NCBI GenBank assembly: GCA_027624315.1
Contig: JAQBXX010000001.1
Coordinates: 62,203 to 126,202 of the forward strand
DNA: 64,000 nucleotides
Direction of reading: 5' to 3'
Origin: Pseudomonadota bacterium
GTDB lineage: Bacteria > Pseudomonadota > Gammaproteobacteria > SURF-13
Position numbers and translations under genes: made by a program. Of the stretch, positions 7,187 to 45,706 are shown piece after piece. The notes under the pieces were generated by a model. The model was not told the origin of the DNA and made no database searches. It saw nothing but the letters and a program-made list of their open reading frames with translations. How positions within the stretch are numbered: position 1 is the stretch's first letter; the number at the start of each line of letters is the position of its first letter.

Positions 7187-7610
7187 TTACAGCTTACAGA
7201 GAATTGGAGCAGAGCCTTGCGCGGTCAAGCATCCGCTACCGGTTTTAGCCCAAGTCGTAGCGCCGACACCCAAAGTAGGAATCAATATTAAAGTGGATGC
7301 CGCATTAGTGGTGGAGGTTGGCGTTACGGTAATAGTTCCATTTGCGACAGCAATGGACGCTACATGAGTTGTTGCTTGTGTGGCGGGGATGCCATTTGTC
7401 TCAATATCACAGCCTGTAACGGTACCAAGTTCTTGTGCACAGATAGCAACAGCGGTTTTGTATGCGCTTGACACTGCAACCACTTCTGCGAATTTAGCCT
7501 TAAACGTGTAATCTTGGTAAGCTGGAATCGCCACAGCCGCCAGAATACCAATGATGGCGACCACGATCATCAATTCAATCAGGGTAAAGCCTTGTTGCAG
7601 CTTTTTCATA
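7187..7610 (-). CDS. pilA: type IVa pilin (PilA)
   Basis: [34 protein letters not shown] is the class III signal peptide with the N-methylphenylalanine site. A C-terminal Cys...Cys loop is present. The gene is AT-rich relative to its flanks. An AGGAGC Shine-Dalgarno lies 7 nt upstream of the ATG at 7610. Confidence 0.85.
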
Positions 7611-7704
7611 ATGTGCTCCTCAATGTAGGTTAAATTTTTAGCAACCTCGAGCCCGGTCTTGTAGCAGGTGACTACGGACTCGAAGCTTGACGGGCAACTA
7701 CTCA

Positions 7705-7720
7705 GCAGCATTCGTGCCAC
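7705..7720 (-). promoter_or_regulatory. sigma-54 (-24/-12) promoter candidate for pilA
   Basis: The minus strand reads TGGCACgaatgCTGCT, matching TGGCAC-N5-TTGCW, about 95 nt upstream of the pilA ATG. Pilin genes in pseudomonads are typically RpoN/PilR dependent. Confidence 0.5.

Positions 7721-8403: not shown

Positions 8404-8404
<1 letters not shown>
8180..8404 (+). CDS. type II antitoxin (Phd/YefM-like, VapB-type)
   Basis: 74 aa, MEKFNIAEAKAHFSELVQKAMLGKEVIIAKGSKPLLKLVP. Overlaps the downstream PIN toxin start (ATGA). Confidence 0.8.
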
Positions 8405-9838
<1,434 letters not shown>

Positions 9839-36571: not shown

Positions 36572-37213
36572 TTAAACCCCGTAGCAGGAGCGGTAATTGT
36601 GGATGGCCTCAAGGTGCGGCCGCACTACAGCTCGTTGCTCCACGTAGCTCAGCAGTGTCTTGAGCGTGACGATACTCACCACCGGAATGCCGTAATTGTT
36701 TTGCACCTCCTGCACGGCGGACAGTTCGCCCTGACCGCGCTCCTGGCGGTCGAGCGCGATCAGCACGCCCGCAGGCTGCGCGCCCGCATCCTTGATGACG
36801 GCGACGGACTCACCCACCGAGATACCCGCGCTGATCACGTCGTCCACGATGAGCACGCGCCCCGCGAGCGGGGCGCCGACGATCAAACCGCCTTCACCGT
36901 GGCGCTTCGCCTCTTTGCGGTTGAAGGCATAAGGCACGTCGCGTCCGTGATGATCGGCCAGCGCGATGCTCACCGCCGCCACCAGCGGAATGCCCTTATA
37001 GGCCGGCCCGTACAGCATGTCGTACTCCACGCCGGAGTGAACCAATGCCGCAGCGTAATAGCGCCCAAGCCGCGCGAGGCTCGCGCCGGTATTGAACAGG
37101 CCGCTGTTGAAAAAATACGGACTCACGCGCCCGGACTTCAGCGTGAACTCGCCGAACTTGAGCACGCCGGTGTCCAGGGCAAAATCGAGAAATTCGTGTT
37201 GGTAATCCTGCAT
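36572..37213 (-). CDS. pyrE: orotate phosphoribosyltransferase
   Basis: [36 protein letters not shown]... with PRPP motif [11 protein letters not shown]. Start at the ATG at 37213; the ORF begins at 37249. Confidence 0.9.
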
Positions 37214-37286
37214 AGGCATTCCCGCAGCGGGGATTATAACCAAAACCATGCACGCGAAGTCATTTTACGGTACGCTTTAGCGCTTT

Positions 37287-37319
37287 ATCACGCTCAACAT
37301 GAATGGCATCCGCTCTGCG
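37287..37319 (+). repeat. left 33-bp direct repeat (copy of the first codons of the xth/crc-like gene)
   Basis: atcacgctcaacatgaatggcatccgctctgcg against 39328-39360 atcaccctcaacatgaacggcatccgctctgcg, 31/33 identical. Encodes ITLNMNGIRSA followed by a stop 3 codons later. Confidence 0.75.
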
Positions 37320-37372
37320 GCGCGCTGATGTCACACCAGACGACCGATTACTTCGGGCAGAGCCCCAGTTGC

Positions 37373-37735
37373 ATGTCTCGACACAAAACAATCCCGATTG
37401 TCGATCTCTTCGCGGGCCCGGGCGGGCTTGGGGAAGGATTTTCTGCCTTCACTACAGCCCATGACCAACATCCTTTCAGGGTAATGCTTTCGATTGAAAA
37501 GGACGGCGCTGCACACAGGACTCTTCTTCTGAGAACCTTCTTGCGGCAATTCCCCGATAACCGCGTCCCGAAGGATTATTATGAATTTCTCAGGAACTTT
37601 AAAGAACCGGAGAGCAGCAGACTCACCCGTCTCTATGGGAAGTATCCCAAAGAAGCTCAAAGAGCGGCCTGCCAAGCCATGCATGCCGAGCTTGGCGTAA
37701 CCGAACTGGCAACAATCAGACATGAATACTCATAA
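37373..37735 (+). pseudogene. N-terminal fragment (120 aa) of a C5 cytosine-specific DNA methyltransferase
   Basis: IPIVDLFAGPGGLGEGF is motif I (FxGxGG). The following block resembles the C5 methyltransferase region between motifs I and IV, but no PCQ or ENV motif appears and the frame stops at 37735. Low GC. Confidence 0.55.
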
Positions 37736-38510
37736 CTGGACAAGAGAGCAGCTAAAGCTGGCATTCCACCTTTATTGCCAGCTACCGTTTGGAAAGTTAC
37801 ATCACAGAAATCCAGAAATAATTCAGCTTGCAAAGCTAATTGGTCGAACACCATCAGCAGTTTCGATGAAATTAGGGAATTTTTCTAGCCTTGATCCCGC
37901 TATCACAAGTACCGGACGGAGTGGTCTAGGTAATGCCTCTAAAGCCGACCGTGAAATTTGGACTGAATTTCATGAAAATTGGGAGAAACTTGCGATTGAG
38001 TGCGACAGCTTAAGGCGGCAACTCAACGCAGGACTTGAAATACCAGCTACATCCGAATTCAATTTATCAACTGATGAATACCTTGGTGATTTCACTGGTG
38101 AAACTCGCAACGTAATCACAGAGCAACGCATTAAGCAGCAATTTTTCCGCAGGGCAGTGTTGAGTAGCTATCGCGGAAGATGCTGTATGACAGGACTATC
38201 TGAACCAAGATTACTGGTAGCCAGCCATATCGTCCCCTGGAGCGCAGACAGATCGAACCGTTTAAACCCGAGAAATGGCCTATGCTTGTCATCGTTGCAT
38301 GACAAAGCTTTTGACCAAGGACTGATTACGCTGACAGACAACTTCAGAATTATTCTCTCCGATAAACTACGAAGCAAAGACGAGCCCTTTATTAAGCAAG
38401 CGTTTTTTGCGCTAGAAGGACATGCCATAGAATTACCCGAACGTTTCTTGCCCAGCGTAGAATTTGTTGCATATCATCGTCAAGAGGTGTTTCTAGATAA
38501 CCGCGCATAA
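37722..38510 (+). CDS. HNH-family (HNH_2-like) putative restriction endonuclease
   Basis: 262 aa with C-terminal motif ASHIVPWSADRSNRLNPRNGLCLSSLHDKAFDQGLIT, the His-Asn-His beta-beta-alpha metal finger. AT-rich. Overlaps the methyltransferase fragment by 14 nt. Confidence 0.7.
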   Translation: MNTHNWTREQLKLAFHLYCQLPFGKLHHRNPEIIQLAKLIGRTPSAVSMKLGNFSSLDPAITSTGRSGLGNASKADREIWTEFHENWEKLAIECDSLRRQLNAGLEIPATSEFNLSTDEYLGDFTGETRNVITEQRIKQQFFRRAVLSSYRGRCCMTGLSEPRLLVASHIVPWSADRSNRLNPRNGLCLSSLHDKAFDQGLITLTDNFRIILSDKLRSKDEPFIKQAFFALEGHAIELPERFLPSVEFVAYHRQEVFLDNRA

Positions 38511-38516
38511 AAGCAT

Positions 38517-38927
38517 CTAAAGCCAACTTATCTTTACCTCGTTCTCGACTTGCTTAAACTCTTTATCGCCAGTGACCAATTCCGCTTTCCGATCCTTAGC
38601 CAAAGCTGCCGCAAAGCAATCCGCGAAGGACATGCGGTTCTTGGCTTTGAATGTTCCGGCAATACGCGCCAACTTCCAGTCAACATCCACAAATTCTATC
38701 CCAAGCAGCCTCAGCGTATCTATTGCCTTGTCCGCCTCGGTTTCGGACACTTCCCAGGCGATTATGTACCAAACCTCTCCGGCGTTCACGACCGACATGA
38801 GCAGCGGTATCCCGTGCTCATGGGCATCACCGATCAGGCTCGCCACTTTCGGGCCAGTGCTTTCGTCCTCCAGATAGGCCAGCACCGCCCACGAATCAAG
38901 CACGATAGCTTTCGGCCGGCGGGCCAT
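38517..38927 (-). CDS. vapC: PIN-domain toxin VapC (second copy)
   Basis: 136 aa, IVLDSWAVLAYLEDE...LLMSVVNAGE..., PIN fold. Confidence 0.8.
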   Translation of the reverse strand: MARRPKAIVLDSWAVLAYLEDESTGPKVASLIGDAHEHGIPLLMSVVNAGEVWYIIAWEVSETEADKAIDTLRLLGIEFVDVDWKLARIAGTFKAKNRMSFADCFAAALAKDRKAELVTGDKEFKQVENEVKISWL

Positions 38928-39157
38928 TAGATATCCCTCTCACGCTTCTTTTCCGCCGCCAGCGCCTTGAGCAGCCCCTTGCCCTTGTATTTTCCCCGCA
39001 TGCTCTGGATGTATTCAGGGGTAATCGGGGTGAGGACAATCTTGTGCGTCTGTTCGTCCACATCAATCTGGATTCTTGTCCCTTCCTTCATTCCAAGCCT
39101 TCTCCGCACCTTTGACGGGATCACGATCTGTCCCTTGGCGGTCAGGTAGGTTTCCAT
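38927..39157 (-). CDS. vapB: AbrB/MazE/SpoVT-family antitoxin (VapB)
   Basis: 76 aa, KGQIVIPSKVRRRLGMKEGTRIQID, a swapped-hairpin beta-barrel motif. Its stop overlaps the vapC start. Confidence 0.8.
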   Translation of the reverse strand: METYLTAKGQIVIPSKVRRRLGMKEGTRIQIDVDEQTHKIVLTPITPEYIQSMRGKYKGKGLLKALAAEKKRERDI

Positions 39158-39318
39158 GACGGCACCCTCAATTTCTGATATTTTTGTATTTTATACCATT
39201 ATTTAAAATGTAAGTCAAATATTATATTTCTTACTTTTTTCATAAGGCGGACATGCTGACGGCTTGCGCCCGCAGTCGGCGGGATGCGCCACAGTGCAAT
39301 TTAAGGTAGGCTGCGCGC

Positions 39319-40092
39319 ATGCGCATCATCACCCTCAACATGAACGGCATCCGCTCTGCGAACACCAAGGGATTTTTCCCGTGGATGCTGAAACAAAAAC
39401 CCGACGTCGTCTGCCTGCAGGAGACCAAGGCGCAGGAGCATCAACTGACGGACAACGCACTGCACCCGGACGGCTACCACAGCTATTTTCACGACGCCGT
39501 AAAAAAAGGCTACAGCGGCGTCGCACTCTACTGCAAGCACAAACCGGACAAGGTCATCATGGGCTTGGGCTGGCCGGACTTTGACGCCGAAGGACGTTAC
39601 ATCGAAGCGAGCTTTGGCAACCTGAGCGTCGTGTCATTGTATCTGCCTTCCGGCTCGTCCGGCCCGGAACGTCAAGCCGTAAAATTCGACATGCTCGAAC
39701 GCCTGGTGCCGGTGCTGAAAAAAATGCGCAACAGCAAACGCGAATACATCATCTGCGGCGACTGGAACATCGCCCATAAAAACATTGATCTCAAAAACTG
39801 GCGCAGCAATCAAAAGAACTCCGGCTTCCTGCCAGAAGAGCGCGCCTGGATGGATCAATTATTCGGCAAGCTCGGTTTCGTGGATGCGTTCCGCGTGGTG
39901 AATCAGGAACCGGAGCAATATACGTGGTGGTCAAACCGCGGTCAGGCGTGGGCGAAAAACGTCGGATGGCGCATTGATTATCACGTCACCACACCGGGCC
40001 TTGTGGATAAGGTCAAATCCGCTGCGATTTATAAAACGGAGCGCTTCTCCGACCACGCGCCGTTGACGATGAATTATGATTACACTTTCTGA
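39319..40092 (+). CDS. exodeoxyribonuclease III family protein (Xth paralog / Crc-like, pyrE-adjacent)
   Basis: 257 aa, MRIITLNMNGIRSA...VVCLQETKAQ...SDHAP. Position next to pyrE matches crc in Pseudomonas. The sequence alone cannot say whether it is a nuclease or a Crc-type regulator. Confidence 0.8.
   Translation: MRIITLNMNGIRSANTKGFFPWMLKQKPDVVCLQETKAQEHQLTDNALHPDGYHSYFHDAVKKGYSGVALYCKHKPDKVIMGLGWPDFDAEGRYIEASFGNLSVVSLYLPSGSSGPERQAVKFDMLERLVPVLKKMRNSKREYIICGDWNIAHKNIDLKNWRSNQKNSGFLPEERAWMDQLFGKLGFVDAFRVVNQEPEQYTWWSNRGQAWAKNVGWRIDYHVTTPGLVDKVKSAAIYKTERFSDHAPLTMNYDYTF
39328..39360 (+). repeat. right 33-bp direct repeat (inside the 5' end of the xth/crc-like gene)
   Basis: See the left repeat at 37287-37319. 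Confidence 0.75.
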
Positions 40093-40098
40093 TTTTAG

Positions 40099-40875
40099 TT
40101 GGGCGCATTAAAACGCATGAAGATACATAGGGCACAGCTAGGCGCAACAAAACTGAGCAAGGTACCGGAGAATGAACGGGTGTTGTTCGTCTTGCTCGGC
40201 CATTTTGTAAATGAAATAAACGTACTTAACAAGACGTTCTACTTATGCTCCCAGTTTCAAGCAGCGCCAAAGTGGCGATCGCATGCTCATACAAGCCAAG
40301 CTCTTGTATTCGCCCGGATACTTATTGGCAAGCTATATGAAGGCTGGAAATTACTGTGCAAAGGATACTTCGACTCGCAAATATCAAAAATCTACGATGA
40401 GCGTCTTAATCAGGAAGCTAAGGACGCACTCAGCAATCTCAAAAAGTACTTTGGGCGAGAAAATCTAATCGACACGATTAGAAACAGCTTCTCGTTTCAC
40501 TACTCCCTCCCAGATACACGGGCAGCCTTAGCCCGGGAACTTGATAATGAAGAGTTGCTCATGTATCTAGCGGATAACAATGGCAATACGCTCTACTACT
40601 TTTCCGAATACATTGTTAATACTGCGCTACTGGAAGCTATAGAGAAAGGGGATCCTGGCAAGGCTTTAGAGCGTCTGATTGGTGAAAGCGCGAAAGTTGT
40701 ACGCTGGTTTAATGAGTTGGCTAGCGGAATAATGACTCATGTTGTTGATAAGTATTTATTGGAAAGTGATGGAAAGCTCGTGTTAGAGTTAATTGATCTT
40801 GGCCACGTTCCGGTTGCCGAGCAAATCGAGATCCCATACTTCTTTACGTCAGAGTCAACCGGTAGGCATGAATAG
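40099..40875 (+). CDS. hypothetical protein in a low-GC islet (no recognisable family)
   Basis: 258 aa ORF, markedly AT-rich against a GC-rich background, with coding-like composition. An alternative start lies at the ATG at 40117. Confidence 0.5.
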   Translation: MGALKRMKIHRAQLGATKLSKVPENERVLFVLLGHFVNEINVLNKTFYLCSQFQAAPKWRSHAHTSQALVFARILIGKLYEGWKLLCKGYFDSQISKIYDERLNQEAKDALSNLKKYFGRENLIDTIRNSFSFHYSLPDTRAALARELDNEELLMYLADNNGNTLYYFSEYIVNTALLEAIEKGDPGKALERLIGESAKVVRWFNELASGIMTHVVDKYLLESDGKLVLELIDLGHVPVAEQIEIPYFFTSESTGRHE

Positions 40876-43976: not shown

Positions 43977-45101
43977 GGCGGTTTCAATGACCAAGTGCAA
44001 AAAGCGCAGCATGATGCTGCCTGAAATCAAACGCATCCGGGGTGAACAACTCCGCGGGACACTTGAAGCCCAACGTCTTGCGTGGCCGGGTATTCAGTTT
44101 CCAGGCAATCGCATCCAGTTCCTTCTGGGTGAAGCCACTCAGGTCGCTGCCCTTGGGCAGGTACTGCCGCAACAGGCCGTTGGTGTTCTCGTTGATGCCG
44201 CGCTGCCAGGGGCTGTGCGGATCGGCGAAGTAGACCTTCACCCCGGTGGCTTCCGTCAGTCGTTGATGCGCCGCCATTTCACGGCCCTGATCGTAAGTGA
44301 GCGACAGACGCTTTTGCGCCTCGATCCGGTTGAGCACATGGCTGAAGCCTTCGAGCGCCGCTTCGGCACCGGCGTCGTTCATGCGCGACAGCACCGTGAA
44401 CAGGGTGGCGCGCTCCACCAGGGTGCCGACCGCCGAGCGGTTGTGCGCCCCCTTGATGAGATCGCCCTCCCAGTGCCCCGGCACCAGCCGCTCTTCCACT
44501 TCCGGTGGGCGATCATGAATGCTGACCATGGCGGGGATCTGACCGCGCCGGTCTTCACCCCGCGCACGGGGTCGGTGTTTGGCATGGCCGAAACGCAGCC
44601 AGCCAATCACCGCCGTGCGCAGCTCACCACGCGGCATGGCGTAGATCGCGGTGTAGATGGTTTCGTGAGAAACCCGCAACAAAGGCTGGTCGGGATGCAC
44701 GGCTTGCAGTGTGCCAGCAATCTGCTCGGGCGAGTAGCCTGCCTTCAGGTAGCGCAGCACCGGCTTCCACAGGGCGGTTCCGGGCTGCAGGCGGCGCTCC
44801 ACCCGTGGGATGGCCGTGCAGGCTTGGGCGCGCTGATGGGCCGCTTCGGCACGGTAGCCGCCGGCCAACGCAGGGCGTCCCGGGCCGCGACGCGCCTTCG
44901 GGCGAGCCCAGCCGTTGCGGCAGAGTTCGCGGGAAAGCGTGGAGGCCGAACGATTCAACCCCGCGGCAATCGCCGCCGGTTTGATGCCCATTTCCAGTTG
45001 CGTTTGGATCATCGTTCGCTCTTCAATACTCAACTGCTGGTAGATTTTCCCCATGCAACATTGTCTCCTGAAAATGTTGCACTTGGTATTTGAGCGCGCC
45101 C
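43977..45101 (-). mobile_element. complete IS30-family insertion sequence (about 1.1 kb) with terminal inverted repeats
   Basis: Terminal inverted repeats ggcggtttcaatgaccaagtgcaa (43977-44000) and ttgcacttggtatttgagcgcgcc (45078-45101). Candidate 3-bp direct duplication ctt at 43974-43976 and 45101-45103. The internal transposase ORF ends within the repeat. Confidence 0.85.
43984..45054 (-). CDS. IS30-family transposase (DDE)
   Basis: 356 aa with an N-terminal HTH (EERTMIQTQLEMGIKPAAIA) and a C-terminal DDE domain (HWEGDLI...DQGREMA...). Confidence 0.9.
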   Translation of the reverse strand: MGKIYQQLSIEERTMIQTQLEMGIKPAAIAAGLNRSASTLSRELCRNGWARPKARRGPGRPALAGGYRAEAAHQRAQACTAIPRVERRLQPGTALWKPVLRYLKAGYSPEQIAGTLQAVHPDQPLLRVSHETIYTAIYAMPRGELRTAVIGWLRFGHAKHRPRARGEDRRGQIPAMVSIHDRPPEVEERLVPGHWEGDLIKGAHNRSAVGTLVERATLFTVLSRMNDAGAEAALEGFSHVLNRIEAQKRLSLTYDQGREMAAHQRLTEATGVKVYFADPHSPWQRGINENTNGLLRQYLPKGSDLSGFTQKELDAIAWKLNTRPRKTLGFKCPAELFTPDAFDFRQHHAALFALGH

Positions 45102-45125: not shown

Positions 45126-45392
45126 TTACGCCGCCTTTCTGCGCTTCATCACTTGATCCAGATCGTAGGTGGCCTGAAGGTTCATCCAAACCTTGGCGGA
45201 TGTACCTAGTGCCTTGGCCAAATCCAGCGCCGCCTCTGCAGTAATGCCTCTTTTGCCCTTGATTAACTCATTCAATCGCGCACGCGTCCACCCCAGTTTC
45301 TTCGCAAATGCGGCCTGGGTGATGTCGTCTGGAATGAGGAACTCCTCCAGAAGAATCTCTCCCGGATGAAACGGATTTCTGGGCTGACGCAT
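45126..45392 (-). CDS. higA: HigA-family antitoxin (XRE HTH)
   Basis: MRQPRNPFHPGEILLEEFL... with a helix-turn-helix (QAAFAKKLGWTRARLNELIKG). The ORF could start at 45419. Confidence 0.75.
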   Translation of the reverse strand: MRQPRNPFHPGEILLEEFLIPDDITQAAFAKKLGWTRARLNELIKGKRGITAEAALDLAKALGTSAKVWMNLQATYDLDQVMKRRKAA

Positions 45393-45415
45393 GATATTTA
45401 CCTCTTCATCCAGCT

Positions 45416-45706
45416 TCAATGATAATCAACAACCTGTACATCACTGGCATTACCGTCCTGCCACCTGAAAACTACCCGCCACTGGCTATTGATGCGAATA
45501 GAGTGGTAGCCCTTCCATTTGCCTTTTAATGCCTCAAGCCGGTTGCCGGGCGGAACGCGCAAATCCAACAACTCAGCGGCATCATGCAGATAGAGCAGTT
45601 TTCTGCGCGCCGCGCGCGTTACATCGGGCGGAAATGACAGCATATCCTTACTGCGCCGGTCGAGAAACAGATCCTGTGCCAGCTTATTTCCAAAGCCCAA
45701 AATCAT
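45416..45706 (-). CDS. higB: HigB-like toxin (RelE/ParE superfamily, plasmid-maintenance killer)
   Basis: 96 aa, ...LEALKGKWKGYHSIRINSQWRVVFRW, toxin-first higBA order. The palindrome tatcgaaactcgata at 45711-45725 upstream is a likely operator. Confidence 0.75.
   Translation of the reverse strand: MILGFGNKLAQDLFLDRRSKDMLSFPPDVTRAARRKLLYLHDAAELLDLRVPPGNRLEALKGKWKGYHSIRINSQWRVVFRWQDGNASDVQVVDYH

Follow-up and report, generated by a model that had tools for sequence, protein, structure and literature searches.

Genomic islands and prophages are known that insert into the 5' end of dusA, where they supply a replacement 5' end, leave the original one at their outer boundary and are flanked by imperfect repeats (Farrugia et al. 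2015, PMC4482086). At their boundary lies the gene of a cognate tyrosine integrase, they are excised in circular form, and they use a 21-bp semi-conserved attachment (att) site and occur in more than 200 genomes (PMC4482086). SXT/R391 integrative conjugative elements integrate at the 5' end of prfC (PMC4344509). Here we describe an islet at xth, the gene for exodeoxyribonuclease III, in a stretch of 64,000 nucleotides (nt) from a gammaproteobacterium of the SURF-13 lineage (contig JAQBXX010000001.1, positions 62,203 to 126,202; hereafter the window). The islet is a real 5'-end-replacing insertion, at a target for which a full-text literature search found no earlier report of xth or exodeoxyribonuclease III as an integration site; that it entered by site-specific integration is unproven. 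With it, xth joins the short list of protein-coding genes in which foreign DNA at the 5' end brings a replacement start, dusA and prfC being the described cases.

With insertions of the dusA and prfC type the islet shares its location in the 5' end of a conserved housekeeping gene, the supply of a new 5' end together with its upstream region, a stub at the boundary, and imperfect direct repeats. Unlike them, it has no recombinase beside the repeats and the site is not used recurrently in many genomes: there is no integrase and no evidence of excision, the islet is confined to one small clade, its repeat of about 92 nt includes non-coding DNA, and its cargo amounts to 2 kb. For SXT, prfC reportedly stays expressed from element-supplied sequence (a finding attributed to Hochhut and Waldor, 1999); SXT is a self-transmissible element of about 100 kb with int and xis, and nothing such is present in the xth islet. 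A precedent of another kind is Campbell-type insertion, the single crossover of a circular DNA, which leaves a direct duplication of the homologous fragment on either side of the insert, needs no dedicated recombinase, and yields copies that may recombine with or convert each other. It is usually seen with plasmids, or with homology mediated by insertion sequences (IS) in the laboratory; unlike in these usual cases, the homology at xth spans only about 47-92 nt. By its content (an HNH nuclease, a methylase remnant and vapBC), its low GC content and its patchy presence, the islet also resembles the small defence and toxin-antitoxin islets of core-genome hot spots, as does a second variable spot directly 3' of xth. 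Typical islets lie between genes; unlike them, this one lies inside a coding sequence, for which the spare gene start compensates.

The original prediction, made from the sequence alone, rested on two 33-bp direct repeats at 37287-37319 and 39328-39360 that agree at 31/33 positions, and a match search of the window recovered exactly this pair. At up to three mismatches these are the sole matches to the 33-mer within the 64 kb, and none of 100 shuffles gave any, which rules out chance or a common intragenic motif. A repeat search stretches the pair to 40 nt (37280-37319 and 39321-39360, 36/40), but we rejected the 7 additional positions (GCGCTTT vs GCGCATC) as true homology; judging from the relative L164 discussed below, their resemblance is a coincidence made by a 9-nt deletion. 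Further upstream, similarity between the two copies runs to about 45 nt 5' of the ATG (z = 3.0, p about 0.016). The duplication is therefore longer than 33 bp: it comprises the xth upstream region and the first 47 nt of the gene (about -45 to +47; identity is about 90-95% over the coding portion and about 66% upstream of it), in two diverged copies that share no exact run above 15 nt and bracket a 2.0-kb islet with a GC content of 0.49 (window 0.61). The features of the locus are as follows.

36572..37213, minus strand: pyrE (orotate phosphoribosyltransferase; Pfam Pribosyltran), native left neighbour.
37214..37286, plus strand: native pyrE-xth intergenic region, a "type A" xth upstream region, 99% identical in L164.
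37287..37328, plus strand: left copy, displaced xth 5' stub, codons 4-16 (ITLNMNGIRSAAR) and TGA; intact stub in L164 and L165. Left junction sequence of the islet: GGCATCCGCTCYGCGGCGYGCYGRTGT.
37373..37735, plus strand: N-terminal fragment of a C5-methyltransferase (M.C5'); homologues carry PF00145.
37722..38510, plus strand: HNH_2 nuclease, 262 residues, intact (PF13391; PADLOC HNH PDLC04132, E = 8e-122).
38517..38927, minus strand: vapC, PIN-domain toxin (PF01850), also in L165 and L170.
38927..39157, minus strand: vapB, AbrB/MazE-type antitoxin (PF04014, TIGR01439).
39158..39245, no strand: AT-rich spacer upstream of vapB, 88 nt, 23% GC, conserved in L165 and L170 (TATACCATT..TAAGTCAA).
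39271..39318, plus strand: imported type A xth upstream region including the ribosome-binding site AAGGTAGG; aligns with the empty site of L175 (z = 6.1, p < 0.001).
39319..39366, plus strand: right copy, first 16 codons of the working xth, with the 33-mer at 39328-39360.
39319..40092, plus strand: xth (exodeoxyribonuclease III), intact, 257 residues; gene body native.

The right copy opens the intact gene, which had been predicted as xth/crc-like and which TIGR00633 identifies as exodeoxyribonuclease III (278 bits, cutoff 99). The left copy, 73 nt from the pyrE start at 37213, reads TAG CGC TTT and continues from ATC ACG CTC AAC to GCG GCG CGC TGA, which translates as ITLNMNGIRSA-AR-stop. Because L164 holds the same stub intact, beginning with ATG CGC ATC ATC ACA CTC and ending with the same GCG GCG CGC TGA (MRIITLNMNGIRSAAR*), we conclude that the stub of the window has lost ATGCGCATC, that is, the ATG CGC ATC 5' of 37287 with the start codon, through the 9-nt deletion. 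The pyrE start is taken as MQDYQ at 37213 and not as the ATG further upstream at 37249, since a gene of 213 residues is called in L001, L165 and L175 and relatives align from residue 13 of the longer open reading frame (ORF).

Evidence that the islet was inserted, and into which sequence, comes from relatives without it. We searched Xth in one genome per species and in JGI metagenomes and obtained 160 loci, the best 78% identical; 107 have a divergent pyrE upstream, the source contig being counted among them. The gap between pyrE and xth is 8-930 nt in 105 of the 107 (median about 90 nt), 2105 nt in the window and 3279 nt in L011, and no second copy of the own xth 5' end exists in any of the 160 other xth loci. 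Closer relatives were drawn from a larger protein collection. L175 and L176 (Xth 83% identical) have the gene order of the window, radC-rpmB-rpmG-desaturase-pyrE-xth-ampG-...-metW, with an empty site: 122 nt separate pyrE from xth and 93 nt xth from ampG, and there is a single xth start. In L172-L174 (Xth 90%) the order is pyrE-chrA-xth, with 61 nt between chrA and xth and again a single start. These empty sites favour an insertion, and since the left copy ceases to match xth at about +47, they also place it in the 5' end of the gene, as had been claimed; the expected adjacency of pyrE to a single xth start is seen in L175 and L176, with chrA as the adjoining gene in L172-L174.

Apart from the window, L011 (6746-10000) alone among the relatives has pyrE and xth far apart (3.3 kb). 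The gap carries unrelated ORFs of 158, 181, 297 and 391 residues, and there is no duplicated xth start. Among the sampled relatives we therefore rejected xth as a recurrent att site: 0/160 loci have a duplicated 5' end and the L011 insert is without a repeat. We likewise rejected the idea that xth itself is foreign, or that the whole of 37.3-40.9 kb is one island, as the nearest xth relatives come from the same genomes as those of radC, rpmB and metW; the GC content of xth and its GC content at third codon positions (GC3), 0.54 and 0.72, are also like those of xth in the empty-site genomes.

The islet itself is common to several lineages that are 10-25% apart at the nucleotide level. Two relatives were found through homologues of M.C5': L164, with the order pyrE-stub-M.C5'-HNH..., and L165, with desaturase-pyrE-chrA-stub-M.C5'-HNH-vapC-vapB-xth. 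In L170 and L171 (Xth 94%), chrA and 26 nt of its upstream region are followed directly by vapC-vapB-spacer-xth; stub, M.C5' and HNH are absent, and vapBC and the imported xth start are kept. Between the stops of HNH and vapC, L164 (2334-2452) and L165 (4157-4281) have about 120 nt that are absent at 38510/38511 of the window, reflecting either a deletion in the window or a small insert in those relatives. The chromate transporter gene chrA lies between pyrE and xth in three relatives (L165 1551-2876, L172 1105-2430, L170 1-1227); the L165 copy is only 72% identical to those of L172 and L170, which are 93% identical to each other, and this is below the identity of the flanking pyrE and xth, so that chrA is either old at this place or was acquired twice at one spot.

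These relatives also indicate which of the two xth copies was brought in. Native xth upstream regions are of two types: type A adjoins pyrE (L175: ...AAACCGATGCACCGCG...GAAGTCGAC...GATTTTAGGTAGGATGCCCGCC-ATG) and type B adjoins chrA (L172: TGAGTGAGTGGCGGTCATGG...AGTGTATCATCGCAAC...-ATG). The left copy of L165 is preceded by a type B region, the orthologue of the one at the L172 empty site (z = 13). The right copies are all preceded by type A regions (z against L175 of 6.1 for the window, 2.3 for L170 and 3.5 for L165) without similarity to type B; that of the window (39271..39318) is 92% identical in L170 and 79% in L165, and unlike the upstream region of L172. Within L165, the two upstream regions are unrelated. 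Since the left one is native type B and the right one type A, the upstream region, ribosome-binding site AAGGTAGG and start of the right copy were imported with the islet, at least in the chrA background; they were captured from a locus of the pyrE-xth type. The claim that the element restores the start of the gene is thus borne out. The left copy is the displaced 5' stub. In the window both upstream regions are of type A, which is why the repeat reaches to about -45 there; the left one (37214..37286) is homologous to the intergenic region of the L175 empty site (AAACC-ATGCAC-GCG, AAGTC, ATTTTA-GGTA-G) and now precedes a dead stub and points into the M.C5'-HNH genes.

The original prediction had further assigned the promoter and ribosome-binding site of xth to the AT-rich spacer, and here our results differ. 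The spacer is followed by 73 nt of 67% GC before xth, and the ribosome-binding site and at least 46 nt upstream of xth belong to the GC-rich copy of the xth upstream region at 39271-39318; a promoter scan of 39158-39318, spacer included, gave no candidate on the plus strand. Rfam and tRNA scans of the region were empty.

In many gammaproteobacterial relatives (L004-L163), a motif G(C/T)TAT(C/G)ATACAC(G/A)CC occurs 10-50 nt upstream of xth, within the pyrE-xth gap. It resembles a conserved -10 element or an operator; type B regions (L172, left region of L165) keep GTGTATCATCGC and type A regions are without it.

The position of the crossover can be narrowed down from the coding part of the copies. 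All left copies (window, L164, L165) have ATG at codon 8 and GCG-YGC at codons 15-16, whichever left flank they adjoin; GTC is found at codon 8 in the native starts of L175 and L172 and in the right copies of L165 and L170. As the left copies share these states across both flank types, this part of the stub travels with the islet: from codon 8 or earlier through +47 it belongs to the left end of the islet, which puts the crossover within the first ~21 nt of xth. The right copy of the window has ATG at codon 8 and TCT at codon 13, which are otherwise restricted to left copies and are missing from its sister L170. This indicates a left-to-right gene-conversion patch in the right copy, by which the identity of 31/33 in the window is inflated; the corresponding value in L165 is 36/42.

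The stub is also more conserved than its surroundings. Between the window (37287-37319) and L165 (2935-2967) it differs at 1/33 positions, and the next 54 non-coding nt differ at 14 (Fisher p = 0.007), close to the synonymous rate seen locally. Since the stub has kept a codon 8 of its own, conversion from the right copy is no explanation for its conservation. Candidate explanations are a site for binding or recombination, a leader of the M.C5'-HNH genes, and chance.

The predicted content of the islet, a methyltransferase fragment, an HNH nuclease, vapBC and an AT-rich spacer, was recovered by profile matches. M.C5' covers positions 3-98 of 422 in the DrmMII/MTase_II profiles, confirming its truncation; motifs I-II are present, and the ORF ends before motif IV, about 15 residues short of the catalytic GGPPCQ of the homologues P0003 and P0004. 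Because the ORF stops before this motif, the fragment, the first quarter of the gene, is unable to methylate. The locus accordingly lacks the complete methyltransferase (motif IV PCQ and C-terminal motifs) of a type II restriction-modification pair. The stop of M.C5' overlaps the HNH start by 14 nt. The vapB and vapC genes overlap by 1 nt at base 38927, with vapC directly 3' of vapB as in type II vapBC modules.

To judge from substitution patterns, HNH and vapBC are under purifying selection: the ratio of nonsynonymous to synonymous divergence (Ka/Ks) is 0.06 for HNH, 0.07-0.09 for vapC, 0.07-0.17 for vapB and 0.06-0.08 for xth, and 0.34 for M.C5'. GC3 is 0.40 in HNH, the lowest-GC gene of the islet, 0.52 in M.C5', 0.65-0.71 in vapBC and 0.72 in xth; host genes have 0.77-0.82. 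Between window and L165, synonymous divergence (Ks) is 0.31 for pyrE, 0.28 for M.C5', 0.30 for HNH, 0.28 for vapB, 1.08 for vapC and 0.93 for xth, and between window and L164 it is 0.69 for pyrE, 0.06 for M.C5' and 0.32 for HNH. A Ks of 0.3-1.0 between islet-bearing lineages shows that the islet is old, as old as the lineages that carry it, and homologous recombination has exchanged parts of it at break points that lie within the islet. It behaves like a resident piece of the chromosome that undergoes such reshuffling and unlike a cassette of recent arrival.

We found 7683 homologues of the HNH protein at ~65-70% identity. For a restriction enzyme, a family with this identity across thousands of proteins and a Ka/Ks of 0.06 is unusually conserved, and a modification-dependent nuclease or a Vsr-like repair nickase are candidate functions. 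An N-terminal M.C5 stub whose stop overlaps the HNH start is also present in L178 (3014-4133), in an unrelated context and cut at a different point (98 residues). Other homologues come after a complete M.C5 (P0131, P0237) or are found on their own, flanked by housekeeping genes and with a downstream ORF of ~125 residues (Gallionella, Sulfuricella); the contigs L166 and L167 were part of this comparison. In L177 (8001-9998), the same methylase family has Vsr in the place of HNH, the normal M.C5-Vsr pair.

As had been noted, no integrase remains. We scanned every ORF of the islet, and there is no integrase or recombinase in the window islet or in those of L164, L165 and L170/L171, whose gene content is the same or smaller; the only family matches are the M.C5 fragment, HNH_2, PIN and MazE/AbrB. 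The other low-GC spots of the window hold no recombinase beyond an IS30-like transposase, and contigs reached through homologues of the cargo (M.C5': L164, L165, L177, L178; contigs with HNH homologues) gave no integrase either. The stub motif has no exact match in viral contigs, the islet has no similarity to phages, plasmid records gave only a 135-nt match in HNH, and an exact look-up of VapB returned the source contig alone. As far as is visible, the islet is immobile. The predicted signature of site-specific integration is therefore not shown: there is no recombinase in islet-bearing contigs, no second island, no duplicated start among the 160 loci and no match in phages or viral contigs. 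What stands of the proposed decayed integrative island or cassette moved by a trans-acting recombinase is the insertion into the 5' end with replacement of the gene start; site-specific recombination is unshown, and the event was not recent (Ks 0.3-1.0).

Several other mobile-element classes were set aside. A transposon or IS is not supported, as the islet ORFs contain no transposase domain, no inverted repeat links the ends, and the repeat measures 40-92 nt. We considered XerCD/dif and integron-cassette readings by eye and with the repeat search: the repeat looks unlike the gammaproteobacterial dif consensus, and the repeat search found no attC-like inverted repeat in the islet, no dedicated model having been run. 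GCTCAAC in the repeat fits a loose RYYYAAC core, for which the chance expectation is about one in ten such segments.

The explanation we favour, with a probability of roughly 45%, is homology-driven insertion and spread. Foreign DNA would have entered about 47 nt after the xth start codon, carrying its own xth 5' segment (about -45 to +47) that had been captured where pyrE and xth are direct neighbours. Since the duplicated unit includes non-coding upstream DNA, it would be a captured host fragment, not a minimal att core. Recombination through this segment would have produced the two copies in direct orientation. With an upstream region, a ribosome-binding site, an ATG and first codons as substitutes, the right copy would have kept xth functional; the left copy would be the former promoter and start, by now a stub that is dead and faces M.C5'-HNH. 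The step may have consisted of one RecA-type crossover with a circular molecule, a Campbell-type event presumably without a dedicated integrase at the time of entry, or else double-strand-break repair or gene conversion that copied the islet from an islet-bearing donor. Later, the cargo would have been reduced to a methylase stub and the selected HNH and vapBC, the locus reshuffled among related lineages by homologous recombination, and, in this genome, a short patch exchanged between the copies and the ATG of the stub lost. The mosaic Ks across the locus supports active homologous recombination there.

Several observations speak against this explanation. It gives no account of how the incoming DNA came by its xth segment. 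In L165, the crossover lies within at most 21 nt, possibly at most 6 nt, of shared sequence, which is short for RecA-dependent recombination and suits a site-specific enzyme or microhomology better. The conservation of the stub 33-mer beyond neighbouring neutral DNA would fit a protein-binding (att) site, and the architecture is exactly that of the integrase-borne islands at dusA and prfC (PMC4482086, PMC4344509). Finally, the closest relatives are short metagenomic contigs only, so that a larger parent element may exist unseen.

The strongest competitor, over which we favour homology-driven insertion and which we regard as possible though less probable, is a decayed site-specific island: a tyrosine or serine integrase, encoded on the element or acting in trans, would have used an attP that mimics the xth 5' end, and the integrase and most of the cargo would have been deleted later. 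The layout, with a new 5' end supplied, the old one at the boundary and imperfect repeats in the place of attL and attR, is that of the dusA islands (PMC4482086). The occurrence of one junction beside two different left flanks, its crossover limited to the first 21 nt or less, and the excess conservation of the stub (p = 0.007) point the same way, and the truncated methylase gene shows that internal deletions did occur. Yet no integrase is found in or beside any of the islets or in the window's remaining low-GC patches, and with 0/160 duplicated loci and pyrE gaps below 1 kb in 105/107, xth is not a commonly used att site. Viral contigs and phages gave no match and plasmids only the short HNH match, the repeat holds ~45 nt of homologous non-coding upstream DNA, far beyond what an att core needs, and with Ks values up to ~1 any integrase activity would be ancient.

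A variant that we consider improbable is that the xth stub is a maintained recombination site and the islet an integrase-less, hitch-hiking cassette with a portable 47-92-nt start of its target gene. If so, recombination functions of the host, or a recombinase encoded elsewhere, could let the islet pass from lineage to lineage or come and go, and, as a spare promoter and start would always be brought along, it would never inactivate its essential-like target. Unless the stub proves to be such a functional site, the locus opens no new mechanism.

In-situ duplication in a pyrE-xth ancestor is similarly doubtful. It would require an illegitimate entry that duplicated ~90-120 nt, or a landing inside a small tandem duplication, the flank of L165 having been replaced with chrA later by homologous or microhomology-assisted recombination; it concerns the pyrE-flanked form of the islet. 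The two window copies do have the same upstream type (z = 3.0) in a symmetrical arrangement, the left copy differs from native-type starts at only ~4/47 positions, and the mosaic Ks makes flank replacement plausible. The scenario needs two rare events at one spot, however, or a target duplication that exceeds those of known insertion mechanisms, as well as an extra recombination ending within 21 nt or fewer for L165. Moreover, a freely decaying stub should have diverged by ~25% between window and L165, where 1/33 is observed, and its codons 15-16 (AR) match the family consensus AAR; this has the look of a genuine xth start derived from a different lineage, not of decay.

Homing by the HNH enzyme is very improbable. 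The enzyme would cut an empty xth near +47, and repair from an islet-bearing copy would spread the islet, converting recipient codons 8-16 to the islet type, as is observed; HNH is also intact and strongly selected (Ka/Ks 0.06). Against this, in the six contigs inspected outside the clade (L166-L169, L178, L179) HNH occurs in three unrelated contexts and never at xth, L170 and L171 keep vapBC and the imported xth start without HNH, and no homing-endonuclease family was matched, the matches being to restriction-enzyme-like profiles. An artefact or chance arrangement (an assembly error at a k-mer that recurs, an intragenic motif of wide occurrence, or the target-site duplication of a transposon), for which only the metagenomic derivation of the window could speak, is effectively refuted by independent assemblies from five samples that hold both junctions (L001, L002/L003, L164, L165, L170), besides the exact runs of at most 15 nt between the copies, the absence of a second copy in 100 shuffles, the lack of terminal inverted repeats and of a transposase domain among the islet ORFs, and a repeat much longer than any target-site duplication.

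Whichever route it took, the islet shows what an insertion of this kind looks like long after movement has stopped: a methylase stub, selected HNH and vapBC genes, a conserved dead stub of the target gene and mutual conversion of the repeats. Two warnings for annotation follow: a short pseudo-start that belongs to an adjacent gene can be the mark of a boundary left by an old island, and a high identity of repeats need not mean recent integration.

The gap between xth and ampG also varies among the relatives. In the window, it contains a second low-GC insert (40099-40875, ORF from the ATG at 40117; GC 0.44, GC3 0.48), whose 252/258-residue ORF has no match in Pfam, NCBIfam or PADLOC. In L175 the spot measures 93 nt only; in L170 it holds the same ORF at 97% nucleotide identity (xth ~90%), followed by a Y1 (IS200-like) transposase; and in L172 it holds a 134-residue ORF, a group II intron reverse transcriptase, a 195-residue ORF and a Y1 transposase. 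In view of these differing contents, the xth-ampG gap is a separate variable hot spot. Other low-GC patches of the window lie at 7187-7720, 8404-8790, 43984-45054 and 45126-45706; the genes in these patches are a type IV pilin, a further PIN-domain gene, vapC-like and immediately 5' of hemB, an IS30-like transposase (HTH_38 and rve) and higB-higA. The genome holds several small toxin-antitoxin islets between core genes.

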